A stretch of DNA of 64,000 bases, from contig JAAOMT010000633.1 in NCBI GenBank assembly GCA_016748015.1, forward strand, positions 28,196 to 92,195. The letters are read 5' to 3'. Shown piece after piece: positions 4,387 through 59,364 of this stretch. Every line of letters begins with the position of its first letter. The stretch's first letter is position 1. A program made the position numbers and the translations under genes. The notes under the pieces are model-generated. The model searched no databases, was not told where the DNA came from, and saw only the letters and a program-made list of their open reading frames with translations. The stretch is from Geosiphon pyriformis uo1 (taxonomy: Eukaryota > Fungi > Glomeromycota).

Positions 4387-4388
4387 TT

Positions 4389-12300: not shown

Positions 12301-12454
12301 TCAAGATGAAAGGGACTTAGAAAGAAAAATGGAAATTGAGAATCAGCAGTCTCAAAATCAATCAATAAATCAACAAGATTCACCTGATGGTCCTGAGTCA
12401 GAAAAATTTGTAGCCTATACCGACCTAGAACAGGTAACCGACATCCGATACTTC

Positions 12455-14274: not shown

Positions 14275-14445
14275 NNNNNNNNNNNNNNNNNNNNNNNNNN
14301 NNNNNNNNNNNNNNNNNNNNNNNNNNNNNNNNNNNNNNNNNNNNNNNNNNNNNNNNNNNNNNNNNNNNNNNNNNNNNNNNNNNNNNNNNNNNNNNNNNNN
14401 NNNNNNNNNNNNNNNNNNNNNNNNNNNNNNNNNNNNNNNNNNNNN
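14275..14445. other. Assembly gap covering most of the C RNase H
   Basis: Run of N between RT and NADCLSR. Confidence 1.
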
Positions 14446-14517
14446 AACTGCTAATGCCGACTGTTTGTCAAGAATGAGACACACATAAAAATCACCAACC
14501 CACCTGCCACAACAACA

Positions 14518-15897: not shown

Positions 15898-15981
15898 TTA
15901 ATCTTAGATCACAGCAAAAATGATTTAACAACCATAAAAACGCATGCAAAAGATTCCAAAATAACAGTCAAAATTAAAACA

Positions 15982-16647: not shown

Positions 16648-16660
16648 AAGGAGGGGATAA
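16646..16660 (+). promoter_or_regulatory. C polypurine tract
   Basis: GAAAGGAGGGGATAA immediately before the 3' LTR. Confidence 0.92.
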
Positions 16661-20004: not shown

Positions 20005-20063
20005 GAACATTTTAACACAAAATATAACAAAACCAGAACAATACCAATGAAAAATAACAAAAG

Positions 20064-21473
20064 ATGAACATACAAAAATATCAACAATTTCAACATTATA
20101 TAAACATTCAACAGTTCAAGGAGAATTTATCTCAAATGGAACAAAAGAGGATTAAACAACAATCAAAATATTTTATCACTCACCAAAATATACTTTATCG
20201 AAAAAATAAAAGGGATCCAGATCAGCCAACCAAAGTGATTACAGAGCCAGAAAAAGAGACAATATTATTTAACATGCACTCAAATCCAACAGCTGGACAT
20301 TTTCACAAAGAAGCAACCATGAAAAGAACCAAAAAAAGATGCTATTGGCCATTAATGTATCCAGACATCATCCAATATGTTAAAAATTGTGATGCTTGTT
20401 AGCAAAGAAGAGGAACAAGACCCAATGAACTATTAAGACCAATCAAAGTGGGACAACCATTTGACTGGATTGGAATTGATGTAGTCGGACCATTAACAAT
20501 TACCAGCAGAGGAAACAGATATATAGTAATAGCCATGAACTATCTCACTAAATGGCCAGAGGCAAAAGCAATTCAAAGAGCGGATGCAGAATCCATTGCC
20601 AAATTCGTTCATCAAGATTTAATTTGTCAACATGGATGTCCAAAGGAATTATTATCAGACCAAGGAACTCATTTTGTGAACAGAACATTAACAAAATTGA
20701 GCCAAAGATTCGGAATTAAGAGACCACTATCATTATCATACCATCCACAAACCAATAAATTAGTCAAAAGATTCAACAGAACATTGTGTAAAGCAATAGC
20801 TAAACTCAGCCAAGAAAACCAGAACAATTGGGATTTGTTGATACCATTAATACTATTTGCTTATCAGACAATGAAGCAAGATACTACACAAGCAATACCA
20901 TTTGAATTAGTATATGGTAGAACAGCAATACTACCAGTGGAAATAGAAGTCAGCACATACCCAACCGAACCAATAACAGAAGAGAATTTCAAAAATACTT
21001 TGTTGAAAAAAACATATGACTTAATGGAAACATTAGAAAACAAATGACAAAGAGCAGCTGATAACATACAAAAGTCACAAGAAAAACAAAAAGAAAGACA
21101 TAATAACCAACTACCAGATAAACCAGTTGAATTTAGGATTGGAAACAAAGTACTACTATATTATACCAAAGTGGAAAAACAATGGAGTGGAAAATTTGAC
21201 CCCAAATGAGATGGATCATTTCACATAGAAGAAATTCTAGGAAATAGAGCTTACAAATTAAGATTGAATGACAAAATCTTGACCAAAACAGCACATGAAG
21301 ATCGACTGAAACCATATCACTATATAGCATCATCATCCACTAGTAATATTCCACAATTAGGAGTACAAAAAATACTAGTTCAACCAGATAAGATTTCATA
21401 AGACCTGGAACCAATCATTATCATTGACAACAAAATGTCCAATTGATTGACAAAAGAATATATAAGAACATAG
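20064..21473 (+). pseudogene. int: B integrase ORF
   Basis: MNIQKY start; MHSNPTAGHF...CDAC; GIDVVGP; SDQGTHF. Confidence 0.92.
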
Positions 21474-22129
21474 TCAATGCAACAGAAAAGAGCAGAAAAA
21501 TGGAGATTATGGACAATATCCATTCACTAGCCCAACAAATTTTTTAATTAATCTAACACCAGGAGATGAAAATTACCATCAATCAACAAACTATTCGTTA
21601 CAAAAATATGGGAAAAATACCACAAAACAAAGCATAGAAAAGACTTGAAAACGTGGTTGACAAGATCATAACTAAGATAAAATTGGCCATGAAAGAACAA
21701 CAAATAGTCGGATTACACCAAGAACTTACCAGAGAAACTTGGACTTGGTAGATACAACAATTTCCAAAAAACTATTGTTATTTTTACTTGGGACAACACG
21801 TGAATATCCAGAACTTATATATGGATAAAACAAAGTGGTTATTCAACACAACAATACTACAACAACTAGAACATTTTGTGGAAAAAAACAACTTATCCAC
21901 ACAAGCTCGAGCTATATACCAAATACACACAGCATTTCAAGATTGACCAATAATCCTACTCAACAAAGCAATAGATACGGTTATCAATAATCAATTGGAA
22001 AAAATCACCAATGCTCAATTTGAAGAATTACGGACTCAAATAACACAAGTAATTTTTGAAAATAAAATTCAGAAAATACTTTAAGAGAGAGAATTAAATG
22101 AATTGGATTTTAACGGAGCTCAATATTAA
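21470..22129 (+). pseudogene. B ORF3, unknown protein (decayed)
   Basis: MEIMDNIHSLAQQ...NYCYFLLGQH...ARAIYQIH...LGKITNAQF...FNGAQY*; 660 bp. Confidence 0.75.
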
Positions 22130-22142
22130 AAAGAGAAAATAA

Positions 22143-23016
22143 TGTTACTCATAGAATATAAGAAATATAGTATTATTAATCAGTAGATATTAGCCAATCA
22201 GAGGTAGACGTAGTAAATGTGGAATTCCAGAATTCCTCTCAGAGGAATTGCAGGATTCCAGGAATTTCAAGATTCTCTGACGAAGAATTGTAGGATTCCA
22301 GAATTCCAGAATTCCTCTCATCAGAAATTGTAGAATTCCTGTTGCAAAGAATTAAGGAATTGAGGAATCTTACTTATGTATATATAGCAGTAGAATTAGA
22401 AGCTAAAAAGACAGACCTCTTAGTTTAGATTTAATCTAAGCAACATTCCAGTTCCCAATTATCAAATAAATAATTATTCTATATCTCAACCCATTCTCTA
22501 TTATCAACACTTCATGTTGATAGTAATTGATACTTAACCACACTGGAACAATAGCTCTTGATCATGGCTATTGATGAGATACTAATGTACCAAATTGCCT
22601 TGGCTTATTTTATTTATTTTCTTTATTTTTATTTTCTTTATTTTATTTTCTTTCTTTTTTTGATTTTGTTGTTGTATACTTATTGATTAAAAGATTAAGC
22701 ACTGAGTTATTGACATCAAGGATAGCCTGGTAAAAGACCCAGAAATAAGGGTAGGATTTTATATATTATCGGATAACTTACCAAAAGGGCACGACTGCCA
22801 GACTAAATCTGGTCACTATGCTGAGAAAGAAATTGGGAAAACTCTTGAAAAGATACATCTACTATCGACACTATTGAATCTCTGTTCATTATACAAAAGA
22901 CTCCATCAAAACCTTCAGATACAACACTTGTAGAACCTCATCCACAGAAGTAGCTTTTGAGCACCAAGTCACAGGTTTGTTATTTAATTCAACAGCAGAA
23001 ATAATCACCTGTAACA
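22143..23016 (+). repeat. B 3' LTR (874 bp)
   Basis: TGTTAC...GTAACA, preceded by a decayed PPT (AAAAGAGAAAATAA). Confidence 0.95.
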
Positions 23017-38986: not shown

Positions 38987-39488
38987 ATGAATACACAAAA
39001 ATATCAACAACTTTAGCAATATATTAATACTCAAGAGTTTAAGAAAAAATTATCTCAAAAAAAACAAAACAACATAAAACAACAATCAAAATATTTTATT
39101 ACTTAACAAAATATACTATATTAGAAAAACAGAAAAAATTCAGATTAATTACTCAGAGTAATCACAGAATCAGAGAAAAAAACAATACTATATAACATGT
39201 ACTTAGATTCAACAACAGAACATTTTTATAAAGAAGCAACTATAAAAAAAACTAAGAAAAGATATTATTGGCCATCAATGTATTCAGACATTATCTAATA
39301 TATTCAAAATTGTGATGCTTGTCAAGGAAAAAAAGAAACAAGATCCAGCAAACTATTAAGACCAATTAAAGTGAGACAAATATTTAATAAAATTGGAATT
39401 GACTTAGTTGAACTATAAACAATAACCAACAAAGGCAATTAGTATATAGCAGTAGCTATGAACTATCTTATAAAATAACCAAAGGCAA
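38987..39488 (+). pseudogene. int: D integrase N-terminal part
   Basis: MNTQKY start, CDAC, IGIDLV. Confidence 0.85.
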
Positions 39489-40284
39489 TGTTACTCATAG
39501 AATATAAGAAACATATATTAGAATAAATTAGCCAATAGTAAATATGAAATTCCAGGATTTTTCTCAAAAAGAATTCCAGAAATTTCAGGATTCTCATATA
39601 AGAAATCACAGGATTCCTGGTGTGAGGAATTAAGGAATTGAGGAATCAAAGAATCTTAATTATATATATATAGCAGTAGTATTAGAAAGAGAAAAAAACA
39701 GAATTTTTTTAGTTAGAGACCTTTCAGTTTAGATCTGATCTAAGCAATCTTCTATTCACAAATATCAATAAATAATTATTCACTATTTCAATCTATTCTT
39801 CACTATCAACACTTCATGTTGATAGTAATTGATACTTAACTACACAGAAACAATAGCTCTTAATTATGGCTATTAACAGGATACTAACTTGCAATTGCTT
39901 TTGTTTATTTCTTTATCTTCTTTTATTTTCTTTATTTCCTTTGTATTTTTTGTTGATTGACTAATTGATTAAAAATTAAAGCACTGAATTACAGATGTCA
40001 TAGAAACTAGTAAAAAACCTGTGAAACAAGGGTAGGACATTTATAGATTTGAGAATAGTTTACCAGGAGGATTACTGGTCACCATGCTGAGAAAAAAATT
40101 TGATAGAATTGCAATTCTGGGAGGCTACTGAAACAACTATTAAATCTCTGTTCATTATACAAAAAACTCTACAACAAAACCTTCAGATCAATTAAACCTT
40201 CAGAGATCAACACCAGAATACCAACCAAGCACCAAGTTACGGATTTATTATTGGTTTTGAGACCCCAAATAAACATCTGTAACA
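39489..40284 (+). repeat. E 5' LTR
   Basis: TGTTAC...GTAACA followed by the PBS TGCTGCTCCTTGTAAGG (40287-40303). Confidence 0.93.
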
Positions 40285-40364
40285 TTTGCTGCTCCTTGTA
40301 AGGTATAATTCTACAGAGAACCAGCACCAACAACAATCATCCAAAAGTGACAGAATCAAAAATC

Positions 40365-43300
40365 ATAGAAGCAAATCATTTAAGATTTGCCAAATCCTTG
40401 TTTTAACAGTACAGCCAACAATTAGGATTAAACAATAACCACTTCCCAACAGAATCAGTCTTTAACTTCTATGTCAATAATAAAATCACAAACTGCTTAG
40501 AAGAAATAGTTGATATTGAATTCGTAAGAGAAAACTTTTATACAGAATTATTTCAACACACCAGCTTACCAAAAAACTACAGTTTCACACCAATTATCAG
40601 AGAAATCAATTAAACCATTGAAAGGTATACACAACAACAATTTTTTATCACCTACACAAACAAAGGCAAAGGAAGATTGCAAACACCAGCAGTAACACCA
40701 AAACAAATACAACCACCCACTTGGAAGAAAACCAGAATTGAATCACTAACAAATCCAATATACCACTATACACCCAGAAGTGTCATTAACATCTTATTAA
40801 CAGATGTGTCCACATTACGCACAACATCAACATTTGAATGACTCTTATTTCAAAATAAACAAAAGAAAGCAGAATTACTAGAAACCTATGGCAATTATTT
40901 TGAAGGATTTAAATTGTGATCGCCAATGCCATCAGGATTCTGATCACCATCACTTCAATTTGATTTCAGAAATGCAAGTCTCTGGGAGATAATGGAATCA
41001 GAAAAAAAAGAAAAAAAAGAAGCCAAAGATCAAGAATTTACTTACCAAAACCCAATTTTAAAAAACTTGAACATTAAAGCCCCGAACTTTCAGATTCAGC
41101 AAGATCCAAATTTAGAAAATCCAGAAGTTGAAACTCCAAATTTTCAAACTCAGCAAAATTGGAACAATCAAAACCCCAGCATTAATAATCAACAACACTT
41201 ACCCCCAGTAATCATCATCGATCAACTACCAATTGAACCAATTATTGAACCAATTTAATAGCAACCACTTCAACCACCCCAACAATCACAACAGCCACTG
41301 CAACAGCCATAACCACTACTTCAACAACAGCAACAACAATTCATGGCATTTGCACCAATTGCAAAATTGGAAAAATTCACCAGCAAAAAAGACAATGTCC
41401 AGGTGTGAATCAATGACATCACCAAAGCAATTATGGCAAATAACTGGAATGACAACAGAGTCTTCCAAGCAATTCTATACTTTTTTCAAGATACTGCCAA
41501 CTCATGATATCAAAGTTTAGCCACCAAACCTTAAACATTCCAAAAATTCAGAGTTGTATTCTTGGGATACTTCAGTAATAATAACAGTATTAATTATCTA
41601 ACCAACATCTTCATCACAATTAAACAGGGAGAAACTAAAGCAGTTACCATTTACTTGGGATGTTTCCACAGGAATTTGCACCAAATTCAAGCAATCTAAG
41701 CTAACTATTTTACAGCATCACAGATTCTAAACCAGTTCATCCATAGACTGTGCAGTAGTCTTCTTCAATGCATATGCCCAATGCACCCACAAACTTTCCA
41801 GAACACAGTCATCAATGTAAAAGATTTTGAATTGGCAGAACTTAAAACAAACCATGCCCAAGCCATTAACCTGGTCATAAATAGATTATCTGACTTGGAT
41901 TCCAAATTGAAACAGCTTAGTGATTCAATTAATCAGAAATTGGAAGGATACTTAATTGACAATTATGCAATTTATTAGCCATCTCAATAATGTAATAATT
42001 CTGGAAGCATAAATCGCCCACTAAATCAGTTGTGTCCATCATCTTTAACCAATCAGATATGACAGCAAAAGATGCATGTTTGCCATTATTGTGGTAAACA
42101 AAAACATTTGAGAATTGACTGTAGGTTAAAACTAGATAACTAACAATCGGAAAATCAATATCAAAACTCTAATCACAGGTTTCAGATTACAAATTATCAA
42201 TCAAACCCAAAACTGTATCAACCAAATAACCTACTTATAACACAACAGCCAATTTATTAACCACCAGTTTATCAGCCAACAACACCAGTAATCTATCAAC
42301 CACAGTCCCAGTTTATCTATCAGCCACAGCCTCAAGTAATCTATCAACCCCAACAAATTCAAACACTGCCACAAAACTTACCTCAAAACAGAACCCAAAG
42401 GCCAAGACTGACACAACAGAGCTGAAGATCGTTAATAATAGTCCATCAACTGATTTCCAGTTTCTCAAACCAGCCATCAGGATCTCGACAATAAAATTTA
42501 GGCACTGGGTATATCCAAAACCCAAATGCTCAACAGTATTTAAGTCTTCTGATTACACCAGAAGATGCCTCACCCAACAATCAGGAATCCAAACAGAAGT
42601 AGCTGCTTACCAGTAATATTCCACCAGCAATCATCTCCAATGAAGATATTCCTAGCAGCTATTTTTCCTTTTGAACTAAAAAAAACCACACCAGTCTCAT
42701 TATTCAGTGAAGCTGCTCTTGACACCAAACCAATCACTGTCATATACATTGATGTGAAAGTTGATAGTCATGCCATCAAACTAATTCTAGACAGTAGATC
42801 AGCTGGCAGCATCATTACATGACAACTCATAAACTAATTAGGTTGCCGAGTTGATCACACTGCCAGTACATACATAATCACTGTTGATGGAGCAACTAAA
42901 ACTCCAATCAGCAAGATTAATGACTTTTCTATAGAGATCAATAGCATTATTGTACCAATCAAAGTATTATTTATGGAGACTACCCAATAGCAAGCACTCA
43001 TTGATAATGATTGGCTGTTTAAAGCCAACACAATGCTTGATTAGAACACCTAAGAGCTCCAGATTAGTCAAAACAGTTAACATCTATGTGTACCAGCCAT
43101 GTGTGGCCACTTCAAGTCTATCAACATAATATTAGCTCCACTCATCAAGTTTGAAGAAAAGGAAAAGAAACCTACCTGGGAAGCCTACCAAGTCTCCTAG
43201 ACTGACACAGAACACAACAAACTACTGCCAATATTATCATAGAATGACAAAAGAAAGGAAAGAAGAGAAGAAGAACTTACTGGAAAAACCAACCAAAGTT

Positions 43301-46300
43301 ATTGGGACAGTAATAGTCAAAGCAAGCAGGCACCAATTTGGACTTGGGAAGAGAAGAGAAAAGAAAAAGAAGAAGGACCAAAACCAGTTACTACTCCAAC
43401 ATATATTTTATATACTTACTCTCAACCACCACAATTATATTATTGTCAACCAAAGCTCATATGTGTTGATTGTGGTAAAAAATTGTCATCAATAAGTGCA
43501 TACTATAGTAACAATGAGAAATACCTAACAGCAACTAAATTTTATTACCATCTATGCATCATTGAACACTTTGAAAGACCAAAACAAGTTGGAAAATGGG
43601 ATAATGAGCTGTGCTTGGCTTGTGGTAAAACTTTTCTTGATGAAGAAATATGAAATAACATTTTTGGAAAAGAAAAACATGCGATGAATTGTGTCAGTAC
43701 ACAATTTTCATAAGTGACTGAGTAAGAAAAGGAATGCCCATAGACACTGCCTAGAGATGAGCAGTCAAATGCTTGAACAAATATTCACATAATGATGACA
43801 AAATTTGGTGAATAGCTCTTGTCAAAATTAAAGAAGTGTCACCAAAAGAAATAAAGATAATCAAAAATAACTCTTCTGAGCCCATAGAATTTGACTGAGA
43901 CTCAGAACCAGTTATAAACCTCCTAAATTCAGAACAATTTCATGAACACTATCAGGAATTAGCACCTACTAGAAAAGAACAAGAGCAATGGTTGGAAGAA
44001 ATAAATACAAGACTATGTGACTATTGTTTAATCCCATGTAACTTTCAATATTGTAATGAGTGTGATCTCATTTACAATCCACCAATTCACATGATTTACA
44101 CGATCCCAAAAGAGGAGAAACCAATTAGCAGCTGTGCATTAGAATTGAAATCAGCTTTCAATCCCAATTCAAACTCCAACAATAACAACAATGAAAACAA
44201 TAGTTCTAGCTCTGCTCAATATGACAATAGAAAATATAGCAATTTGAACTCTGATTTAAAACCCAAAACATACATTGCACTCCCTGATCTCACCAAAGAA
44301 CAGGAACTTAAATGGTTTAGTGATAATAATAAAGGTATTATGCCAGAATACACACATGATACTGATACAAGGTTTGATCTGAGATATTTGGAAAAAAATT
44401 CCATCAAATTAGAACTCTATTTGCACACCTGCCTTAATCTCAAAATAACACTGGAAATTCTAGCAACAACAATGGTTCAGTTAGCATCTAGGAGTAGTTT
44501 AGCCAAAAAGAAAATCAACATCAGAAGAAGAATAATTGATGCAGAATACATAAGAAATATTATTGCAATGCTACAAAATAACTCAGAAAAGACATATATC
44601 ATAGATCTAAATAAAAAAATAGCACAAACAATATTCCTGCCTCTGGTTAAAATAGCTCAATTAGTATTAGTGAGAAACAAGAAAGAATTAAAGATCACAG
44701 CTAAAAAAATACAGGGATTTGGATCCACAAGTAGAATAAATGTACCAGTTAATATGGCAGAGAAAGAAATTATTGACAAGAAAGAAATTATTTCCACCCA
44801 TCAACCAATTTCTATTCTATTATATGACCAGTACATGGTAGTCATAGAAAGAAAAGTAAAAGATCAGATACAGATTTTTGAAGTAGAAGCAACACTTTGT
44901 GAATCAGAAAAGATCGGATTAGTCAATTTAGACATACCAGTCAAAAACCACAGCCACATTAAAATCTCTATTTACAACAATACAGGAGACATTATCAAGA
45001 TACCCGAAAAAACCACCATTAGATACTTGACCACAGAAATTGAAGACCAATTCTTAGACACCATTCTAGACTTTTCACAACTGTGTGGATATGTAGATAT
45101 CACATCTCAAACCATATACAGATAAAAAAAATGTTATTTGCTCCAATCAATACAATTAAAACAAATGAACATAGGAAACTTAGATCCATTACAACATCAA
45201 ATTAAGACTAGAAATATAATGCCAATTAAACAGAGAGCATATAGAGTACTATCAGCTAGCCATAAAATTATTTGTTAAGAAATCAATCAGATGCTTGACA
45301 ATGAGCTAATTCAGCCATCAATGAGTCCATGGTTATTATTAGTGGTACTAATCCAAAAGAAGAATGGGAAAATCTGCTTTTGTGTAGATTACCAGAAGTT
45401 AAATGGAGTAACCAAAGGAGATAGCTATCCAATACCAAAGATCCAAGAGCTGTTTAATACTTTTGGAGGAAAGAAATGGTTTTCAACATTAAACTTAGAC
45501 AGTGGTTACTGGCAAGTAGCCATGAAACCAGAAGACAAAGAAAAAACAGCTTTTACAACTCAAGAAAAAAATTTTGAATTTAAAGTAATGTTATTTGGCT
45601 TGATGAATGCTCCAGCAACATTCCGATGGCTCATGTAAATTGTTTATACTAGATTACTGTGGAAATCAGTAGTTGTTTACTTAGATGACACCAATGTGTT
45701 CTTAGAGACATTTGATGATCATTTGCATTATTTCTAACAAATGTTTGAAAGATTGAGAAGAACCGAATTAAAATTAAATGTGACCAAGTGTTTTTTTAGC
45801 AAAACAGAGTTGAAATTTTTAGGACATGTCATAAGCAAAGATGGCATTAAAATGGATCCAGATAAAATTGCAATAGTAAAAAACTTTTTAGTACCAACTA
45901 ACTTAACAGAACTGAGAGCATTTTTGGAATTTACTAGATATTATTGCCATTTCATTAAAGATTTTTCTAAACTGGCCTAGCCACTTCATCACTTACAAAC
46001 TAAAAATATAAAGTATAAATAAACAGAAGCTCAATAAAAAGCATTTGACACACTAAAAAGAAAGCTTATTCAAGCTTTAGTGTTGATGTATCCAGATTAC
46101 AACAAACTATTCATTATCAGCACTGATATATTAGGCCAGATATTGAGAGCAGTACTATCACAGAAAAGACCAGATGGAAGAGAACATCCAGTAGCTTATG
46201 CCAGTAGAAGCATAAGTCCAGTAGAAAAAAACTATAATACTCCAGCACTAGAACACTTAGCTATCTATTGGGCTGTTATCAAGTAAAAAGAATACTTGAG

Positions 46301-46481
46301 TCAAAAGTTTGATGTGTATACTGATCACAAAGAATTGACTTCAATCCAGAAGCAAAAATTTGGAAACAATTGCTATGCCAGATGAAAAATAGAACTTTCA
46401 CTATTCAATTATACAGTACATTATAAAAAGAGAAAAGACAATGGAAATGCTAATGGTTTGTTGCAAATAAGACAAATCTAA
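40365..46481 (+). pseudogene. gag-pol: E gag-PR-Cys-rich-dUTPase-RT-RNase H polyprotein (decayed)
   Basis: CHYCGKQKH, LILDSRSAGS, ORF 43992-45125 with dUTPase motifs, YLDD, HPVAYASR; ends IRQI*. Confidence 0.92.
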
Positions 46482-46513
46482 AAAAACATTTTAACTCGAA
46501 AATATAACAAAAC

Positions 46514-47928
46514 ATGAATATACAAAAATACCAACAACTCCAATATTATATAAATACTTAATTGTTTAAGAAGAAATTATTTCAAAAAGAATAAAACAAC
46601 ATAAAACAGCAATCAAAATATTTTATCAACCATCAAAATATACTTTACCAAAAGAACAAAAGAAATTCAGATCAATTAACCAAAGTAATTACAGAACCAG
46701 AAAAAAGGACAATATTATTTAACATGTACTCAGATCCAACAGCAGGACATTTTCATAAAAAAGCAACTATAAAAAGAACCAAAAAGAGATATTATTGGCC
46801 ATCAATGTATTCAGACATCATCCAATATGTTCAAAAATGTGATGCTTTGTCAGAGAAGAGGTAGAACAAAACCCAGTAAACCATTAAGACTAATTAAAGT
46901 GAGACAACCATTTGATTGCATTAAAATTGACTTAGTCGGATCATTAACAATTACTAGTAAAGGCAACAGATATATTGCAGTAGCTATGGACTATTTTACC
47001 AAATGGCCAGAAGCAAAAGCCATTCAAAGAGCAAATGCAAAATCCATTGCTGAATTTGTTTATTAAGATTTGATCTGTCAACATAGATGTCCAAAAGAAC
47101 TATTATCAGATCAAGGAACACACTTTGTGAATAGAACATTGACAGAATTAAGTCAAAGATTTGGGATAAAAAGACCATTATTATTACCATACCATTTACA
47201 AACAAATGGGCTAGTTGAAAAGTTTAACAGAACATTGTGTGAAGCCATTGCCAAAATCAGCCAAGAAAACCAGAATGAATGAGATTTGTTTATACCATCA
47301 GTATTATTTGCTTAACAGACAATAAAACAGGACACTACATAAACAACACCATTTGAATTAGTATATGGTAGAACAGCAATATTACCAGTTAAGATAGAAG
47401 TCAATATTTATCTAACAGAACCAATAATGGAAAACAATTTTCAAGAAACGTTGCTAAGAAGAACATATGAATTAATGGAAACACTAGAAAACAAATGGTA
47501 AAAAGCAGTTGATAACATTCAAAAGTTATAAGAAAAACAAAAAAAAAGACATGATAACCAACTACCAGATAAACTAGTTGAATTCAAGATTGAAAACAAA
47601 ATACTTTTATATCATATCAAAGCGGAAAAACAATGGAGTGAAAATTTGACCCCAAATGAGACAGATTATTTCACATAGAAGAAATTCTTGGAAATGGAGC
47701 TTACAAATTAAGATTAAACAACAAAATCTTAATCAAAGCAGCACATAGTAATTGACTGAAACCATATTATCATATAGTGTTACTAACCACTAGTAATATT
47801 TTACAATTAGGAGTACAGAGAATACTAGTCCAACCAAATAAAATTCTACAAGATCTGAAACCAATCATACTCATTAGACCAAACACGTAAAATTGAACAA
47901 TAAAAAGAGGATATAAAAAACATGGTAG
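46514..47928 (+). pseudogene. int: E integrase ORF
   Basis: MNIQKY start, DYFTKWPEA, SDQGTHF, QTNGLVEKFN. Confidence 0.9.
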
Positions 47929-48590
47929 ACACAACAGAAAACTTCAGAAAAATAGAAATCACTGACAACATCCACTCATTGGCACAACAAATCTTCCAAT
48001 TGATTGAACAACCGAATATGAAAATTACTATCAATCAACAAACTATTAGATACTAAGATACCAAAAAGATACCCAAATACAAAAGTCAAAGAAAAACAGA
48101 AAACACTATTAACAAAATGGTTCTAAAAATAAAATTAGCAATAAAAGAACCAACAATTGTCACCACATATCAAGAGTTGACTAAAGAAACTTAGAAATGG
48201 TAGATACACAAATTTCCAAGAAACTTTTGTTATTTTTATTTGGAACAACACTTAAATATTCAGAACTTATACACAGATAAAACAAAATGATTATTTAACA
48301 CAACAATATTGCAACAACTAGAACAATTTGTGGGCAAAAACAATCTAACAACACAAGCAAGAGCTATCTATTGATTACATGCTAGATTCCAAGACAGACC
48401 AGAAATTTTACTCAATTCAAAAATGGACTCTATTACAGTTAATTAAATGAGAAAAATAACCAACACCCAATTTGAAAAAATACAGAACAAAATAACTTAA
48501 GTAATTCTTAAAAAAGAAGTTCAGGAAATACTCAAAGACAGAGAATTAAAGTTAAGAGATTTGGGAGATTTTGATGGAGCTCAATATTAA
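47922..48590 (+). pseudogene. E ORF3, unknown protein (decayed)
   Basis: MVDTTENFRKIEITDNIHSLAQQ...NFCYFYLEQH...FDGAQY*; 669 bp. Confidence 0.75.
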
Positions 48591-48604
48591 AAAAGAAGGA
48601 ATAA

Positions 48605-49261
48605 TATTACTTATAGAATATAGAAAATATATATTAGCATAAATTAGCCAATCAGAAATAACCATAGTAAATATAGAATTCCAGGATTCTTTTCAAGAGG
48701 AATTGTAGGATTCCAGGAATTTCAGGATTCTCGTATAAAGAATTACAGGATTCTAGAATTCCAGGATTCCTCTCAAAAGAAATTGCAAGATTTCAGAAAT
48801 TTCAAGATTTTTGGTGTGAAGAATTGAGGAATCAAAAAATCTCAATTATGTATATATAGCAGTAGTATTAGAAGGAGAAAAAAACAGAATTCTTTTAGTT
48901 AGAGACCTCCCAGTTTAGATCTAAACTAAGCAACCTTCTATTCACAAATATCAATAAATAATTATTTACTATCTCAATCTACTTTTTACTATCAACACTT
49001 TATGTTGATAGTAATTGATACTTAACTATACAGGAATAATAGCTCTTGATTATGGCTATTGATAGGATACTAACTTGCAATTGCTTTTGTTTATTTTTTT
49101 ATCTTTTTTTATTTTCTTTATTTCCTTTGAATTTTTTGTTGGTTGACTAATTAATTAAAGATTAAAGCACTGAGTTACAGACATCATAGGGGGTAAAAAA
49201 CCTGTAAAACAAAGGTAGGACATTCATAGATTTGAGAATAGCTTACCAGAAGAATTACTGG
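48605..49261 (+). repeat. E 3' LTR, left part
   Basis: Matches the E 5' LTR; preceded by the PPT AAAAGAAGGAATAA. Confidence 0.92.
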
Positions 49262-50245
49262 TGTTACCAGACGAAATTAGAGATATTATTTAGCATGAAA
49301 TTATCTTTATAATTCCCATCATTAATTAACACATATTATCGTTTTAAATTATCACTTATTACATTAGCAAAATATCCAAAATTATCATTTAATTAATAAC
49401 CCAATTTGTATTTAACACAAATGTAACCCAAGTGTGATGATCAATTATACAATACTCTGAACTATGTAACATTCAAAAAGTTTGCCAAAATTTGTAAAAA
49501 TTTGCCAAAATAATTGATAGTTCACCGAAATATCTAATAGTTCACAGAAATAACTTGTAGTTCACTGAAATGTATCTTTAGTTCAGCAAAATTGTAGAAA
49601 ATAGCAAAGTTCGAGTCCATAGAATAGTGTTATAACAAGTTGTATAAAAGAAGAGCTTTTCTCTTCAAAAAAATGTATCTTACTTTAGATTTAATAATTA
49701 GAATCATCTTTTATACACAAAAACAAAATAAATATCAAATAAATTCGAAAAGCCAAATTCTTAATTACTTCCTTTGAAATTAACCAATTTCTACTAACAG
49801 TTAAAATTAATTAGCTACCAATTTCAGTAGACTGTTAAAACACTTTCAGACCTGGATCCGAAACAACTTCCATAAATCATCAGTTTTACTTTTTTTTTTA
49901 CATTTCTTTTATTCTCTTTCTTTTCTTATTAGAAATCATTTGGGTAGTCTATGGACAAAAATTCCTGTAGAAGAGTTGACTTTCACAGCAAAGTAACTAC
50001 ACATTTTAGTAAGCTTCTAAACGAGCAATTTCTGGGAAAGAGTTGATATTTACTACAACATAACTATACAAAGTAACTGGCATGGAATTGGCCATTCCAC
50101 TTATAAGTCCAGCAGTTCAAATTATAGGAGATAATTTGAAGATAAATTCGGTTACTGGAGGTTCAACCACATTCAGAAAACGTGAATTCACAGCAAACGG
50201 GCATTAACAACATTTAAGAAAAGAGACCAAAAACCTCCAGTAACA
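49262..50245 (+). repeat. F 5' LTR
   Basis: TGTTAC...GTAACA; four U3 repeats of AGTTCA(C)CGAAAT type; PBS TGGTGCTCTCCC at 50248. Confidence 0.95.
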
Positions 50246-50290
50246 TTTGGTGCTCTCCCATAGAAACAACACAGTAAAAACAAATTTGAA

Positions 50291-53200
50291 GTGGTGATCA
50301 TACCAGATGAAACAACTCTAAGGTATTACCAATTAATTTACACCCACTGTAAGCAAAGATTCAACATTCCAGACGGAATTAAAGTTGTCAAGAAATCAGT
50401 ATACCAATACATTGAAAACTGCATTAACAATTATCTTTTTGGAAATTACAATATCTCAGAAGTTAGAAGCAACCTTTACAATAATTTAACACACTATTCA
50501 CAGTTGGGAACTGAAGACCTTAACAGCAAAATACTTGCCACTTACTTTCAAGAACTTAATTTTAACATTATCAAGTACTGTAAAGAAACATATCTAGTGC
50601 AGTCTCAATACTCTATTGATTTTGAATCAAAAACAGAAACAAGCAACAAAGACAAACAAAAATTGAAGCAATACTCAAAACCACCCCAAATACCCCAATA
50701 CTACCAAAAACAACTGCCAAACACTTACAAACACCTGAACAAGGAACCAGTTCAAAACTTCCACTTACTATCACACTTTTTCCAGCTTCATTTGCACAAG
50801 CACAAACACCTAATTCACCCTTGAATTGATTTACAAGACCAGAAAATTTTACATCACTCAGAAGTTTTACCAGACAGCAAGAACTCCTTCAAACTAGTTC
50901 CAATCTTTTTGATTTTCTAGCTGAAAATCAAAGCGAACACTCTGAGACAGCAGCAAACAAAGAAAATGACTCTGAAATAACCGAAGAAGAATCAATAGAC
51001 AGTAAAAATGAAGAAAACAAAATGACAGCATACATTGCAAAAATCTCTGAATTTAATGGAGAAGACATTGAGACCAGTCCCCAAGAATGGCTCGATCAAG
51101 TTACTAAAGCTGGAGATGCAAATGGATGGAATGCTGCCAGAATATTAAGAATAATTTTCTACTTTCTTAAAAGAACAGCAGGAGAATAGTTTGAAAACTT
51201 GGCTGCTCCATTCAATGATTGGAATGCTTTTAAAGCAGCCTTTTTTTAACAGTTTACTGACAATAATATCTCCATCACTCTTCGAAATTGGTTTCACAAT
51301 ATCAAACAAGAATCCTCCGAATTTGTTATGACTTATATTGGAAAATTCAACAACCTTTTCAGATGAATTCGCCAACTCGAAACAAACAATTATTATTCTG
51401 ATGCTCAAATTTTGGATCAATTTATCGCTGGTCTAAAAGATAAACTAATTAAAAAGATTTGCCCACATGTGTTAAAAGATTTAAACTCTGCCATACAGCA
51501 TGCAAAAAGATACGAAATGGCCATAGAAGAGGCCAATTGCACAAAACTTGTAAATTTGGCAATTGAAGAAACCAGCTCAGCAGCTGAGAAAAAAATTGAC
51601 CAACTCACAAAGAAGGTTGAAAACTATTTCACCAATCAACAACAACAGCAACCCCAAAAATATCAACCACTCCAAAGATGAAATCAAAATAACTTTGCAC
51701 CACTTTCTAATAACCAGTCTTAGAATTGCTATTACTGTAGAATTCCTGGCCACTGGAAAAGATATTGCAGAAAGCTATAATGAGACCAACAAAATAGGAG
51801 TAATCAACGTTATCCTCTACCACAGCAATCTTATTATCAACCACCACTACCAGCTTACTATCCACCAAGACCCTAATATTAAAATAACTATTATCAGCCT
51901 GTCTCACAGCCAATCCAACAGCAATACCAACAAACACCCACACAACATTATCAAGTACCTGTTCAAAAACTGATTACACAAAATCAATTTACACTACAAA
52001 ACCAATACCAAGTAAACAACAATAGAATCAGTTCGAACAACTAAGTGGTTCCCCAAAATTCCACTCAACCAAGACCCAATCACTATTACACTCAACCCAG
52101 TTATTTAATCATGCCAGAAGAACAGGATTTTCATTATACTGCACCCTCAGAAGGTAGAGCTACAGCACAACAACAAAACTCTTCCTATACTTCCATCACA
52201 ATTTCACCAGCCAGAATTGCTGAAAATGCCAACTTTTCAGATATATTCCCTTTTGAGTTCAAAGCAAATGAGTCACCATTCTTGCTTAGCAATACAGCCG
52301 CCAACAAACAAAAAGCAATCACGGCTATGTACACTGAAGCAGAAGTCAAAGGAAAGACAATTTGCTTGATTCTAGACAGTGGATCCACTGAAAGCATTAT
52401 CACCTACCAGTTAATGCAACAGTTGAAGAGAAATGTTGACTGACCAGCTCAAACAGTAATTGTCACTGCTGATGGCATGAAAAAGACCCCAGTAGGAGAA
52501 ATTGACAATTTTCCATTCACTCTTGATAGAATCACCATTCCAGTCAAAGTTCTTATAATGAATGCACCCCAGTATCAAGCCCTTGTCAGAAATGATTGGC
52601 TTCAAAAAGCCAATGCAAAATTAGACTGAAAAACCCAAGAATTACAACTCTTCTATCAAGAACAATATACCCGAGTATCCATTACTTGTGGTACATTCAA
52701 CAAATGCTCTGAGAAAGCCCCGGCTTTTGAATTCGAACCGAAAGAGAAAAAACCCATCATTGAAACATTTATGGCACTTGGATTAACTTCCAATTGGGCT
52801 GATGAAACTGAACAACAGTACTTTTCAACAAATGATTCTCTTGAAACAAAAGAACCAGTAACAACCAGATGGAATGTTCCCTATTCAAAACCAGAACCAC
52901 AAAAACAACGCTCTTACATTTCACTCAAATACAAAGATTGTCACAAAATACTCTCATCAATGGGAGCCTGCATTTCACCTGAAGAAGAATATGAAAATCA
53001 TACTTGTTATTACTGCAAGGCTTGTCACAGAGAATAATGGGGCCATCTAATAAAAAGAAGTGGGAAATGGGACAACACCCCTTGTTTGACTTGTGGAGAT
53101 ATACTACTGGAAGAATGCAATTGGATTGATGTAGCCATGAGAGGAGGAGTCTGCAATCAGACCTGCCAATATGCTTTATTAATTTCAGAAAAAGTAAAAA

Positions 53201-55923
53201 GAGGAACACTCTTTAATGAGGCATACAACAGTGCTTTCAACAAACTTTATCATTATCTTCATGATGCCAAGATGATTTTCAACTTAGCAATGGCATTAAT
53301 TAATGGAGCTACCAAAAAAGATGTCCATCAAATGAAAGAAGCAGAATACATTAAATACACCATGGAATTAGCTGGATTTGATTATGAAGATGAAGTAGAA
53401 GTCTACTACCAAATTGCAAGTTACACCTATCCAACCCAAAAAGCTCAAATTTAACAATTAAAGCAAATGAACATTAGACTATATGAAGAATGCATTATGT
53501 CTTGTGATGAACAGTGGTGTTCTGAATGTTACGCTTTTAGCATCCCCTTGTCCAGTGAAAGTGATGAGAATGAAATTGAATTTGGAGAACCTAAAGCAAT
53601 GGAAGAAATTGAAACAACATCCATTTACTTTATCGAAAATTAGCCTGTCTTACAACTCAAATACTTCAACAACAATGGACAAGGAATAAAACCCAAAAAA
53701 GCACACGAAATTGATGCTGGATATGACCTATGATATCCAGACAAGGATACTCTTGTTCTCAAACCCAAATCTCTCACAAAAATTAACCTCAAAATTGCAC
53801 TCAAAATTCCGCCAGGAGCAATGGTTCAAATCGCCTTCCGGTCCTCTCTGGCAAGCAAAAAAATCAATGTCAGAGAAAAAATAATCAATGCTGGATATAC
53901 TGGAGACATTACAGTGATGCTTCAAAATGAAACTAACAAACCATTCAAGATCGAACATGCTGAAAAAATTGTCCAAGCTATTTATCTACCTCTAATCAAC
54001 ATTTCAGGTTTGCAACTAGTCAATCAAAGAGAACAATTAGGAAAAAGCGATAGAAGAACCCAAGGTTTTGGTTCAACTGGACAATTCACAGTTCCAGTTA
54101 ATATAGCTCTTAACACACAGAATGAATCCCACCAGATTCTCAGACTTTCACAACCAATTATCATCTCACCCTTTAGAAAACATCCGGAAATCTATGCCTG
54201 TCCAAAGCCAACAACCACACAACAAATTTTTAAGTCTAATGAACAAGTCTGCTTGGAACATAATATTTTGATCTCAAACATTTATATTCCAGAAGGAACA
54301 AAGAAAGTCTGAGTTACTTTTTACAATTCCAACAATTACCCCATAGTTTTATTAAATAATTTAGAAATTGGAGTTATTCACAGTAATATATTTCAATAAG
54401 AATTACCCCAAACAGTCTCCGATTTCTCTGAAATTATTGGACATACATTACCAAAAATCAACCCAAACTCCAGCTCTGAAAACTACCATGTTGTCATGGA
54501 AAAACTATTTCGAATCAACATGGGACAACTTGAACCACAACAACAAAGCCAGCTCAAAAAGCTAATTGCAGAATTTGCTAATATCTTTGCTGAAAACAAT
54601 AATGACTTAGGAAGAACTGATTTGGTTCAACATCAAATCTACACAGAAGATGTCAAACCAAGGTGACAACAAGCCTATCAAGTTGCTCCAGAAAGCCACC
54701 AATTCATCTGAGAAGAAGTACAACAAATGCTTAACAATGGGCTCATCCAACCCTCTATAAGTGCTTGGGCTTCACCTGTAGTGCTAGTTAAAAAGAAAAA
54801 TAGAAAGATATAATTTTGTGTTAACTATCAACAACTCAACAGTGTTACAATTGGAAATGCCTATCCCTTTCTCCAAATTGATGACATGTTAGATGCCCTT
54901 GGAAAATCCAAATACTTTTCAACACTAGATTTAGAAAGTGGTTACAGGCAAGTTGCTATGGATCCCAAAAATTGTCCTAAAACAGCATTCACTACCCAAG
55001 GCAGAAATTACAAGTTCAATGTAATGCCTTTCAGATTATGCAATGCACCAGCAATGTTTTAGAAATTAATGGATTTTGTGTACCAAGGACTCCTTTGGAA
55101 GTCAGTAATCATTTATCTTGACAATACTGATGTTTATTCTCCATTGTTTGAATTACACTTAAAACATCTGCGAGAAGTTTTTCAATGATTACAAAAAGCA
55201 GGACTAAAATTCAACATCGAAAAATGCTACTTTGGAAAAACAAGCTTGGCCTTCCTTGGTCATATCATTAGTAAAGATGGAATCAAACCAGACTCTGGAA
55301 AAATCAGCACTGTCAAAAATTTCAAAATTCCTCAAAATACTACAGAACTAAGAGGATTCATAGGATTAGCCTTCTACTATCGAAAGTTTATCAAAGGATT
55401 CTTAGAAATCGCAAAACTTCTTAACCAGCTTACCACCAAAAATGTCGAATACAAATGAACTGCTGAATGCCAAAATGCATTTGAAATCCTCAAAGAAAAA
55501 CTAACGACAGCTCCAATTCTCGCCTACCCAGATTTCAGCAACTGATTCCGATTAGCAACAGATGCCTTTTATACTGCCTTTGGTGCTATTCTATTACAAT
55601 TGGATGACAATAGAAATGAGTGAGTAATTGCCTATGCTAGCAGAACATTAAAACCAGCTGAAAGAAATTATTCTGCCACTGAATTGGAAACAGCAGCTGT
55701 AATTTGGGCTCTACATTATTTCAACCTTTATCTCTGGCCAAAGGAATTTGATATTATCACTGATAATATTGGACTCAAATGGCTTCAGAACAAAAATACT
55801 CAGCTGAATGCAAAACAAACCCGATGGACAGGATTTCTAGCAAACTATCAATACATAGTACATCACAAACCAGGAAAACTCTACACCAATGTTGACTGTC
55901 TCTCCAGAATAAGACAAGATTAG
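50291..55923 (+). pseudogene. gag-pol: F gag-PR-Cys-rich-dUTPase-RT-RNase H polyprotein
   Basis: DQFIAGL, CYYCRIPGHWKRYC, LILDSGSTES, DAGYDL/RSSLA/GFGSTG, RT, NVDCLSRIRQD*. One frame after a shift near 50680. Confidence 0.93.
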
Positions 55924-55974
55924 AAAACACAAAAACCAACACTCAACTTAACCAACCAAAACAGCCAACAAACA

Positions 55975-57360
55975 ATGAATTTGGAAAACTACAACAATCT
56001 CAAACAATATTTGGAAACATTAACAATTCCAATAGATTGGTCTTCAGATGAAAAACATTGACTACAACAACAAACCAAACAATATTTTCTACACAACAAC
56101 ATTATTTATTATCGAAATTTCAAAAACCCAGACAAACCATTCAGATTAATACAAGAACAGAAAAAAAAAACTATATTATACAACATGCACTCAGATTCTT
56201 CATTAGCACACTTCGGAAAAGACAGCACCATCCAAAGAACACTAGAATACTACTTTTGGCCTCAAATGAGAAAAAACATTCATGAATATGTCGAATCTTG
56301 TGATAGTTGTCAAAGAAAAAGAGGAACATGCCCTACTGAACCATTAAATCCAATCAAAGTTGGACAACCCTTCGACCGAGTTGGTATCAATTTAGTCAGA
56401 CTACTATCTATTACCACTCAAGGAAACCATTATATTGCAGTAGCTGTAGACTATCTTACTAAATGGCCTGAAATCAGAGCCATTCAACGAGCAAATGCAA
56501 AATCAGTAGCAAATTTCATCTACGAAAACATCATTTGTAGACATGGATGTTCAATTGAACTTTTATCTGATCAGGGAACACACTTTGTGAACAACCTGAT
56601 ACAAAAAATTTGCGAACAATTCAATGTCAAAAGACCTCTGTTTTCGTCCTACCATCTACAAACAAACGGACTTATGGAACATTTTAACAGAACATTGTGT
56701 GAGTCATTAGCCAAAGTCTTAACCGATTTTGAGCAAAAATGGGACATCTTTATTCCATCAGTGTTACTAGCATATAGAACACTAAAACAAGATACCACAA
56801 AACACACACCATTTGATTTAACTTATGAAAAAACAGTAATATTACCAATTAGTTTTACAGTAAAAACATACCCAACACAACCAATCAATAAAAACAATTT
56901 CCAGGAAACACTACAATGAAAAGCCTACACTCTGCTTAGCACATTGAAAGATAAATGACGAATAGCAGCAACTCATATTGAACATTCTTAAGCTCAACAA
57001 AAAGAAAGACATGACAACAAATTACCACCTATTACTAATGAATTTAAAGTTGAAAATAAAGTTCTCCTACACAGAACTAAAGCTGAAAAACAATGGAGTG
57101 GAAAATTTGAAAATAAATGGGATGGACCATTTTTTATTCATGAAATTCTAGACAATGGATCATACAAGCTAAGACTTGATGACAAAATCTTAGCAAAAGT
57201 TGCACATGGAGATTGTTTGAAACACTATAATTCCAGAAACAATCCTAAATCATTAATTCCACAAATTGGCACACATTCCCCTTTAATCAATCTCGAAGAT
57301 ATTCCTCAGAATTTAGAACCAATAGTTGTCATTGAACAACCTTCTAACTTGAACACTTAA
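55975..57360 (+). pseudogene. int: F integrase ORF
   Basis: MNLENY start, MHSDSSLAHFG...CDSC, SDQGTHF, WDGPFF; ends LEPIVVIEQPSNLNT*. Confidence 0.93.
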
Positions 57361-57482
57361 TTTAAATTTATTATTATAGTTATCTTCTTATAATTTAGAA
57401 ACAATCTCACAAAAACAAAACAAAAATAACATAAAAACTTATACACCAAAAATAATTTTCTTTTATTTTCAAATTTTTTATA

Positions 57483-58202
57483 ATGACTATTCCTTAAAAC
57501 ATTCAACAATTATCCTAAAAACTAATGTTAGCTTTAAAAACAATACCTGAATTATCTATTACTGTTACTGGAAACCACATTAATTATGCCCAAACAGAAG
57601 TAGTCACAAATTTAGCCCCAAATTCACGAAAATATTACCTATATAAAAAGAACACAAGAAGTTATTCTGGAATCCACCTGTCAGAACTCTTAAAGCTTGT
57701 TTTAAGAAGAAATTTAATGTTCACTTCTATTAGTATTCCACCAAATACTACTATTCAACAAAAACTTCAACTGTGTCTTAATGAAGAAAACCATAACTAT
57801 ACTCCAATATATAGATATTTCTACATTGGAAAAACACTTCACGAACAAAAACAAGAGCTTACAGCAGCAAACCTCATAAAAAAAGCTATTCAAAAACAAC
57901 TCCACAACGAATTCAAAACAACAGCTGGATTTACAAACAGTCGCTATAAACTAAGAGCTGCTCTTAGACTTTATGACCTATTCCACACCTGTGAAAACAT
58001 TCTACAAAACCCAATTTTACAACTTTTGAAGATTCAATACATTGAAAAGCTCACAGAACTGAAATTTCAACAATTTTCAGACCAAATTTCTTCAATAATT
58101 TTGGATTATTATCTGAAAATTACAAACAGTACTTGGATTTCGACAGAGCTCAGTTTTGAGGAGAAGGTTATGTTACCAGATGAAATTAGAGATATTATTT
58201 AG
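57483..58202 (+). pseudogene. F ORF3, unknown protein, nearly intact (225 aa open from 57525)
   Basis: YRYFYIGKTL...RAALRLYDLF...IEKLTELKF; two TAA (likely from CAA) near the start; the frame runs through the PPT into the LTR. Confidence 0.8.
58158..58170 (+). promoter_or_regulatory. F polypurine tract
   Basis: GAGGAGAAGGTTA before the LTR. Confidence 0.88.
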
Positions 58203-59154
58203 CATGAAATTATCTTTATAATTCCCATTATTAATTAACACATATTATCATTTCAAATTATCACTTATTACATTAACAAAATATCTAAAATTATCATTTA
58301 ATTAATAACCCAATTTGTATTTAACACAAATATAACCCAAGTATAATGATCAATCATGCAATATCCTGAACTATGTAACATTCAAAAAGTTTGCCAAAAT
58401 TTGTAGAAATTTGCCGAAATAATTGATAGTTCACCAAAATATCTAATAGTTCACAGAAATAACTTGTAGTTCACCAAAATGTATCTTTAGTTCAGCGAAA
58501 TTGTAGAAAATAGCAAAGTTCAAGTCCATAGAATAGTGTTATGACAAGTTGTATAAAAAAAGAGCTTTTCTCTTCAAGAAAATGTATTTTACTTCAGATT
58601 TAATAATTAGAATCATCTTTTATACACAAAAACAAAATAAATATCAAATAAATTCAAAAAGCCAAATTCTTAATTACTTCTTTTGAAATTAACTAATTCC
58701 TACTAACAGTTGAAATTGATTAGCTACCAATTTCAGTAGACTGTTAAAACACTTCCAGGCCTGGATCTGAAATAACTTCCATAAATCATCAGTTTTACTT
58801 TTTCTTTTATATTTCTTTTATTTTCTTTCTTTTCTTATTAGAAATCATTTGGATAGCTTATGAACAAGAATTTTTGTAGAAGAGTTGACTTTCACAGCAA
58901 AGTAACTACACATTTTAGTGAGCTTCCAGACGAGCAATTCCTGGAAAAGAGTTAACATTTACTACAACATAACTATACAAAATAACTGGCACAGAATTGG
59001 CTATTCTACTTATAAGCCCAGCAGTTCAAATTATAAGAGATAATTTAAAGATAAATTCAGTTACTGGAGGTTCAACCACATTCAGAAAACGTGAATTCAC
59101 AGCAAATGGACATCAACAACATTTAAGAAAAGAGACCAAAAACCTCCAGTAACA
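58171..59154 (+). repeat. F 3' LTR
   Basis: Direct repeat of 49262-50245. Confidence 0.95.
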
Positions 59155-59158
59155 CTGG

Positions 59159-59364
59159 TCACCATGCTGAGAAAAAAATTTGATGAAATTGTGATTCTGG
59201 AAGGCTACTGAAACAACTATTAAATCTCTGTCTATTATACAAAAAACTCTGCAACAAAACTTTCAGATCAATTAAACCTTTAGAAATCAACACCAGAATA
59301 CCAATCAAGCACCAAGTTATAAATTTATTATTGGCTTTGAGATCCCAAATAAACATCTATAACA
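59159..59364 (+). repeat. E 3' LTR, right part
   Basis: Matches 40079-40284. Confidence 0.93.

Follow-up and report, generated by a model that had tools for sequence, protein, structure and literature searches.

How does a Ty3/Gypsy retrotransposon obtain its integrase (IN) if the Pol frame ends at RNase H (RH)? The question is raised by element F, which occupies positions 49262-59154 of a 64,000-nt stretch of contig JAAOMT010000633.1 of the fungus Geosiphon pyriformis uo1 (this whole stretch is called the window here) and is a decayed Ty3/Gypsy element lying inside the 3' long terminal repeat (LTR) of another element, G. In the reference Ty3/Gypsy layout, integrase is part of Pol, an arrangement that sets its dose and brings it into the particle. 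Our data confirm that the link is broken here: the frame for Gag, protease (PR), reverse transcriptase (RT), and RH stops, and integrase and a third open reading frame (ORF3) are separate ORFs. F itself is, with high confidence as to its anatomy, a dead copy of an LTR retrotransposon from this separate-integrase lineage. That anatomy combined with an integrase made by termination and reinitiation of translation is the overall reading toward which we lean, by a narrow measure.

Anatomy of element F

The features of F, with the flanking target-site duplications (TSDs), its primer-binding site (PBS), plus its polypurine tract (PPT), are as follows.

49258-49261, no strand: left TSD, CTGG, repeated at 59155-59158; F is inserted in the 3' LTR of element G
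49262-50245, + strand: 5' LTR, 984 bp, TGTTAC...GTAACA
50248-50262, + strand: PBS-like sequence TGGTGCTCTCCC
50264-51021, + strand: Gag N-terminal extension, in two frames in F, without a Pfam family at threshold
51022-51768, + strand: Gag capsid domain and CCHC zinc knuckle (Retrotrans_gag E 5e-7, Ty3_capsid E 0.002; CYYC..GH..YC)
52336-52602, + strand: aspartic protease (LDSGS), by Pfam on the stop-masked frame
52930-53560, + strand: Cys-rich module with several CxxC pairs, from the alignment of F, family C, Bm, and P0047
53692-54081, + strand: dUTPase, decayed in F (Pfam E 3e-17)
54088-54400, + strand: "dUTPase-like" region, a homolog of the spacer domain between PR and RT in ordinary Gypsy elements
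54481-55920, + strand: RT and RH (Pfam); the Pol frame ends 4 codons past DCLSR
55921-55974, + strand: stop TAG (55921-55923) and a 51-nt A/C-rich spacer without ATG (A30 C17 G1 T3)
55975-57360, + strand: integrase ORF with its own start Met; HHCC, core, and SH3-like tail
57483-58202, + strand: ORF3, about 235 aa, crossing the PPT into the start of the 3' LTR
58158-58167, + strand: PPT, preceded by a GAGCTC motif
58171-59154, + strand: 3' LTR, 984 bp
59155-59158, no strand: right TSD, CTGG

The two LTRs are 93.5% identical, and all 64 differences between them are transitions. CTGG stands on each side of F as a 4-bp TSD, and the flanking 5-mers differ. With its stops masked, frame 50830-55920 gave Pfam matches to Gag, protease, dUTPase, RT, and RH, and the integrase ORF gave the zinc-binding domain, the core, and a weak SH3 match. 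Nothing is nested in F, and to that extent its description as an uninterrupted copy in the original prediction holds; its reading frames, however, carry 32 premature stops (26 + 4 + 2, the 26 being in frame 50830-55920), and the Gag extension has a probable 1-nt deletion near 50676. The main frames of F contain no in-frame ATG between the PBS and the capsid domain (50246-51021), and Gag may be started through splicing, within the LTR, or at a codon that has decayed or is not ATG. No tRNA gene was found in the window.

The LTR pair, PBS-like site, and PPT place F in the Metaviridae (Ty3/Gypsy), as do the capsid and nucleocapsid domains of Gag (Ty3_capsid E 2e-11 in element B; CCHC knuckle) and the domain order PR-RT-RH-IN. 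The closest solved RT is that of Ty3 (E 4e-78), with the next solved relative at 1e-51 and foamy virus at 7e-34. The canonical position of integrase within the pol gene is lacking, and we file the lineage as a variant related to the Metaviridae that is non-canonical in gene layout.

The integrase is a separate reading frame

F alone is inadequate as proof of a separate ORF, because its integrase is in frame with Pol, with no further stop in the 51-nt spacer, and the TAG is one transition away from CAG. Contigs of run X1 on the RH/IN junction gave no variant row at 55921, but no row lay within 37 bases of the ends, and a decayed control stop near the other end was blank as well. The other copies in the window and their relatives, namely, 80 metagenome loci (L numbers) and a set of proteins (P numbers), carry the case. 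The predicted succession of a Pol ending at RH, then integrase, then ORF3 was borne out: a stop follows RH at all six visible window junctions, and the five measured spacers (51, 29, 59, 30, and 32 nt) give frame offsets of 0 and 2 even inside one family. Of the 80 loci, 28 have an RH end motif upstream of integrase, and 23 of these are split and 5 are fused. We assembled 27 split junctions by adding loci found by ORF position and omitting L047 and L052, whose integrase start is uncertain (L052 also groups with animal-type elements whose integrase is fused); each of the three frame offsets is represented among the junctions. Whether intact copies lack the separate ORFs was checked on relatives without premature stops, and they show the same split. 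Since a stop stands at every visible window junction, offsets are free among relatives, and intact relatives are split, the separation is real.

Both sides of the junction are represented by intact proteins. Among the 120 listed long proteins matching the dUTPase-RT-RH region of F, the Gag-PR-RT-RH proteins P0026, P0027, P0032, and P0033 (46 to 50% identity) end 1 to 5 residues past D.LSR. P0106 also ends there, but it groups with fused elements and its cluster has a longer member. The best 120 listed integrase relatives are 396 to 453 aa long, start with Met in 118 cases, and mostly begin at a common motif, M(D/N/E)xxxYxxLxxYL; none of them has a chromodomain (PF00385), and named stand-alone integrases come from Rhizophagus irregularis and Entrophospora. 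It counts against this part of the evidence that the integrase search was limited to 121 to 807 aa, so that fused forms could not appear.

Two explanations would dispense with a separate integrase gene. The first, which puts both the split and ORF3 down to C-to-T decay of dead copies, agrees with the heavy decay of F (observed/expected CpG 0.27, in addition to its premature stops) and with a TAG so close to CAG. The same split in intact relatives largely refutes it, ORF3 shows coding-type divergence, and an intact short form of ORF3 is predicted to fold at high confidence (see below); we give decay almost no credence. The second, that the stop is read through or frameshifted to give a low level of fused Pol-integrase, is very unlikely. 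The integrase is indeed in frame with Pol in F, in element E, and in the nearest metagenome relative, L005, but the free offsets inside one family and over the 27 relatives speak against it, as does the conserved start Met. Furthermore, read-through contexts, of which TGA-CTA and TAG-CAATTA are examples, are absent at the measured RH/IN stops of the window and occur at PR/RT stops. Seven in-frame PR/RT stops of relatives were examined, and five have TGA-CTA and one has TAG-CAATTA (L022:872, L023:3292, L030:904, L035:931, L036:3360, and L037:1587). As judged from these contexts, the PR/RT stops are likely sites of programmed read-through yielding Gag-PR and Gag-PR-RT-RH.

Some observations on the relatives stand apart from this argument. 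In several, Pol continues after RH for 235 to 600 aa with an unnamed region in place of integrase (L010:3497-4438, L013:4348-5163, L017:2420-3271, L028:587-1291, L036, and P0057; in P0057 and L036, the region is rich in Cys and His). One stand-alone integrase of the lineage, P0416, is filed under an Acidobacteria metagenome bin and is probably misbinned fungal DNA. At L072:7440-8400, in a Gypsy polyprotein, a chromodomain-like segment recognized by eye lies between RH and integrase and not after integrase. The IMG/VR scans gave no close relatives.

How the integrase may be translated

In our model, Pol and the integrase would likely share one full-length RNA, on which ribosomes that have terminated begin again at the nearby ATG. 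Some relatives would do this where stop and start overlap, and the Geosiphon copies over an A/C-rich spacer that is short and unstructured. Stop and start overlap at 7 of the 27 junctions, by 1 nt (TAATG), 4 nt (ATGA, twice), 8 nt, 11 nt, and 14 nt (twice). UAAUG, AUGA, and AUG-n2/5/8-stop are listed forms of coupled termination-reinitiation, and LINE-1 restarts across a 63-nt spacer, according to the available text of PMC5972666. By its sequence context, the integrase ATG is judged to be the true start, because a purine at -3 is enriched (24 of 27 integrase ATGs versus 90 of 155 internal Mets; p 0.002) and the short spacers are poor in ATG (7 in 16 spacers of 24 to 163 nt versus 17.4 expected from composition; p 0.004). 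The Geosiphon spacers are short, A/C-rich, and G-poor; four of five have no ATG, and the ATG in element C is ACG in a sister copy.

Several points weigh against reinitiation. The junctions of 20 of the 27 relatives are spaced, and so are those of the window, which means that the overlap or adjacency of coupled reinitiation is present in 7 of 27 relatives and at none of the five measured window junctions (29 to 59 nt). Cellular mRNAs with a separation of more than 14 nt have the start before the stop, again according to the available text of PMC5972666. Three spacers of 365 to 727 nt contain 7 to 12 ATGs each, for which simple reinitiation is no explanation. Moreover, the spacer of F contains CTTAAC...CAG, a candidate branch point and splice acceptor, and the strong start context of the integrase fits a subgenomic mRNA equally well.

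Separate subgenomic mRNAs for integrase and ORF3, arising through splicing out of the region of the 5' LTR or by use of internal promoters, are the main rival to reinitiation. The env gene of errantiviruses and Pol of foamy viruses are precedents. Besides the start context and the motif in the F spacer, the three long ATG-filled spacers and an AG right before the ATG in C and E are in favor of such messages, and the ORF3s of LTR retrotransposons typically come from spliced messages (PMC5408684, in the part available). The spacers of B, L004, L005, and L039, however, contain no AG, although an acceptor could lie upstream inside RH, and splicing leaves the recurrence of exact stop/start overlaps unexplained. 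We regard subgenomic mRNAs as a possibility, on balance an unlikely one.

A further route would be internal ribosome entry on the full-length RNA, via structured RNA or an A/C-rich leader and without need for upstream translation. Just 5' of the integrase ATG, 16 of the 80 loci, all from one subclade, have a hairpin roughly 40 nt long whose large internal loop is one-sided (L008:295-334, L009:596-635, L010:4464-4503, and 13 more loci). Its conservation at this position, with 96.8% of cells paired, and its covariation, with 7 of 9 pairs changed on both sides and the pairing reached in 0 of 500 shuffles, would suit internal entry, with the reservation that 14 of the 16 loci were used to build the model. 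The nine loci scanned against Rfam gave no match. The window lacks the hairpin (best score 13.5 bits, off-junction), and so do the overlap-type junctions; the structure could be a protein-binding site or a restart aid. As a general route to the integrase, internal entry is improbable.

With reinitiation, as our model has it, a free integrase would need its own route into the particle, because it is not carried by Gag-Pol. This route would probably be RNA or partner binding via the new 60-residue N-terminus.

ORF3 is a conserved gene for a predicted helical protein

By its pattern of divergence, ORF3 is a real gene, because it has few in-frame stops (0 to 7, versus 9 to 22 in shifted frames) and a third-position excess of 1.3 to 2.5 in all 10 pairs compared. 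ORF3 of element B shares 26 to 36% identity with the ORF3s of F, C, G, and A and 96% with a gene model of Geosiphon pyriformis. Searching with a profile of the window ORF3s gave the intact homologs P0354 and P0360 (the latter is the ORF3 of L005), and a shorter form of 120 to 160 aa is related to it (hhalign 81%, E 1e-5). Of the 26 loci that extend 500 nt or more downstream, 13 contain ORF3 according to leave-one-out profiles (40 to 98 bits; reverse-strand control at most 4.8); in L020, L023, and L046, the PPT directly follows integrase. The ORF downstream in L056 was rejected as a proven homolog (6.4 bits), and so was a frameshift at the end of ORF3 in F, which reads into the LTR exactly as in L005.

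No transmembrane segment was found in ORF3: over 23 ORF3 rows, the 19-residue hydropathy maximum is 0.34 to 1.53, and there are 0 to 4 Cys. The structure model of the short form is an all-helical domain (predicted local distance difference test score [pLDDT], 94.7), and that of the Geosiphon-type ORF3 is poor (pLDDT 52). Foldseek gave no match with the Geosiphon-type model at this pLDDT, the short model had no match in PDB, BFVD, or the wide VIA search (best Z in VIA, 4.5), and by sequence there was no PDB match and no usable Atlas match, which does not show a new fold. By family, the sole hit is a sub-threshold one to DUF1016_N (YhcG N-terminal), at 18.9 bits (cut-off 32.8; E 0.002) and in 2 of 23 members. 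ORF3 is thus far predicted to be a soluble, mainly helical protein; an identity as Env was rejected, given the lack of a membrane segment and the helical model. Tentatively, and as the weakest step of our model, ORF3 would be a soluble nucleic-acid-binding helper of expression or packaging rather than an envelope.

A GAGCTC-type motif lies right before the PPT, at 58147-58152 in F and at corresponding places in B, C, G, A, and L005. It is kept across families while the ORF3 frame through it varies, which suggests a cis signal.

Accessory modules between protease and reverse transcriptase

The dUTPase scored above the Pfam PF00692 cut-off, and five motifs, which we take to be motifs I to V, are recognizable, most clearly in the intact P0047; on these sequence grounds, the domain is a genuine member of the trimeric dUTPases. 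Enzymes of this family limit uracil in cDNA, and the dUTPase of the Geosiphon subclade would do so in element cDNA. The dUTPase region of F is 81 to 84% identical to several Geosiphon pyriformis gene models; with the match of B's ORF3 noted above, this makes that fungus the most likely host. The Cys-rich module aligns across F, family C, Bm, and P0047 with a third-position excess and, as its sequence suggests, is likely zinc-binding; it had no Pfam match and only a 0.75 Atlas lead, which was not usable. P0047 and P0354 both lie on a 19,119-nt contig, probably the same one, which would make it an intact Geosiphon-type relative.

The full combination of modules had been thought to define the clade, and this was not supported. 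The span from PR to RT is visible in 16 relatives, made up of ten loci and six proteins; two of them (P0047 and L056) have the dUTPase, and P0047 alone has the Cys-rich module. ORF3 is likewise limited to 13 of 26 loci. The full combination therefore marks the Geosiphon subclade only, in which the dUTPase and the Cys-rich module are local additions, and the separate integrase marks the wider lineage. The "dUTPase-like" piece was also rejected as a new accessory module: in hhalign, its better counterpart is the spacer between PR and RT in ordinary Gypsy elements of the fused type (82%, E 1e-5), with dUTPase well behind (5%, E 0.008). The distinctive core is the stand-alone integrase plus a frequent, conserved ORF3, and the lineage reaches well beyond the three families of the window.

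Outside this region, the Gag of many relatives starts with an unnamed module, roughly 140 aa long and containing His and CxxC residues, that has no Pfam family at threshold (L001:3226, L008:2501, L010:6804, L013:328, L020:4112, and L028:4651); a profile of this N-terminal HxxxCxxC module had no match in the window. By eye, L051:4838-7599 and L053:7401-10192 are animal-type Gypsy elements with a fused integrase followed by a GDSL/SGNH esterase-like ORF and an envelope-like ORF.

Is the split of single origin?

In the integrase tree, a branch with support of 100/97 has all 23 split sequences on one side and 17 of the 18 fused ones on the other; the exception, L079, has a very long branch. In the RT-RH tree with three long rows dropped, the split group forms one side of a branch at 87; it was unresolved in the first RT tree, in which long branches were kept. 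The window families group with L005 at 98 to 99 in the integrase and RT trees. Against a single origin stand the two changes needed on the integrase tree (approximately unbiased [AU] test for one split clade, p 0.07) and the three needed on the careful RT tree (AU p 0.545). The choice of outgroups, which are unnamed or animal matches plus one plant protein and do not include fungal chromovirus, GyDB, REXdb, or Repbase references, weakens the trees further. As far as the trees go, a single origin of the split is not rejected and not proven.

Nested elements and target sites in the window

The window holds, in 1-61713, two nests that belong to this one lineage, from outer to inner Bm > A > C > B and E > G > F. 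The seven elements belong to three LTR families, namely, F; B and Bm; and A, C, E, and G (family C). As originally proposed, the LTRs of the families are dissimilar, with no match across families longer than 55 nt. Decay across the window consists nearly entirely of transitions, with CpG depletion. The nested elements other than F with mapped features are as follows.

8179-17526, + strand: element B, second family, least decayed, with two N gaps; RH stop at 14488, 29-nt spacer, integrase from 14518 in another frame than Pol, ORF3 at 15898-16647
3497-23016, + strand: element C, third family, contains B; RH stop, 59-nt spacer, integrase from 20064, ORF3 upstream of the 3' LTR
940-30598, - strand: element A, family C, contains C; layout as in C
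39489-59364, + strand: element G, family C, with F in its 3' LTR; itself lying within the integrase of element E (about 34345-61713)

The claim that the families have different PBSs survives in part: Bm is clearly distinct (TGGTGAAC), but F and family C share TGGTGCTC, and the PBS of B falls in an N gap. TSDs of 4 bp, which had also been noted originally, flank each of the five insertions whose two ends are visible (left TSDs at 936-939, 3493-3496, 8175-8178, 39485-39488, and 49258-49261); two of the pairs match only once CpG decay is taken into account. The TSD center is CG, TG, or CA in all five (background 0.15 per site; the sample is small and the pattern was noticed post hoc). CG at the center (NCGN) is provable via homologous empty sites in two, and the other three are NTGN or NCAN. 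The pattern may reflect a preference for CpG or for any flexible pyrimidine-purine step, and foamy virus is known to prefer the latter at its target.

Implications

A lineage with a broken Pol-integrase link in several Glomeromycotina orders points to another solution for integrase translation and packaging. Candidate signals are now defined in the stop/start overlaps, the covarying hairpin, and ORF3, and they are testable in Rhizophagus irregularis, for which there are RNA data and recently active Gypsy elements. For annotation, proteins of these fungi that are labeled "integrase core domain" or hypothetical likely belong in many cases to such elements; LTR sequence makes up 41.2% of the Geosiphon genome (PMC11952901, in the text available). 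A bolder scheme, which we consider doubtful, has one RNA give Gag-Pol, integrase, and ORF3 by serial restart, with ORF3 as a trans-acting restart or integrase-carrying factor, the hairpin as a control site in one subclade, and the chromodomain-free integrase reaching silenced DNA through cuts made around CpG. If true, this would be an old polycistronic class of LTR retrotransposons with a caulimovirus-like gene strategy inside an integrating retroelement, and ORF3 would possibly be a new helical fold.

Comparison with known systems

The lineage had been called retrovirus-like, and this label is not supported: retroviruses keep integrase in Pol, and ORF3 lacks a transmembrane segment. In errantivirus-type Env elements, the third ORF has transmembrane and surface domains, which ORF3 here does not. 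The ICTV profile of the Metaviridae has integrase inside pol and env as the only third gene (PMC7879559). Our elements are like Metaviridae in their LTRs, PBS, PPT, Gag capsid and zinc knuckle, PR-RT-RH-IN order, and Ty3-like RT; they differ in that integrase is an ORF of its own and ORF3 has no membrane segment. Our literature search, which covered few subscription papers and not Repbase, GyDB, or supplementary repeat libraries, found no published Gypsy lineage with a separate integrase, and in the parts available, papers on Glomeromycotina elements give abundance and not gene layout (PMC11952901; bioRxiv 2021.03.30.436303).

Most fungal Gypsy elements are chromoviruses (PMC3248453, available text). 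The elements described here are like them in being fungal Ty3/Gypsy elements with a Ty3-like RT and differ in the chromodomain, which, as predicted, gave no Chromo match on the integrases of F and B by Pfam and is likewise missing from the best 120 listed integrases.

A dUTPase is known in other Gypsy elements, namely, PosPlaTy3-5 of Postia placenta, Phanerochaete elements, and Tmt1 of Tuber (PMC2864245, in part). Its position between PR and RT, which the original prediction rightly gave as already known in fungal elements, is described for PosPlaTy3-5 (PMC2864245) and for planarian Burro (PMC6431247) in the text available. Bdelloid rotifer families have a dUTPase and varied ORF3s (Env, GDSL, DEDDy, or membrane proteins), with IN listed within pol in the available part of PMC5408684. 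All these resemble our elements in the dUTPase, and the rotifer families also in having ORF3s; a separate integrase and a counterpart of the Cys-rich module are not reported for them in the accessible sections of these papers.

For the proposed translation of the integrase, the closest parallels are the coupled reinitiation systems of hypovirus CHV1, caliciviruses, influenza B, and the LINEs SART1 and L1 (PMC5972666, in the text available). The likeness lies in the UAAUG, AUGA, and AUG-n-stop overlaps or in an L1-like short spacer. Those systems are RNA viruses or non-LTR elements, and in the elements described here the mechanism is a putative one. For the target sites, the parallel is with the Phygy elements of moss, which prefer the four-base NCGN for insertion (PMC6317226, in the text available); NCGN targets are provable in two of five insertions here. 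Phygy is a plant lineage, and the pattern here also fits any central pyrimidine-purine step.

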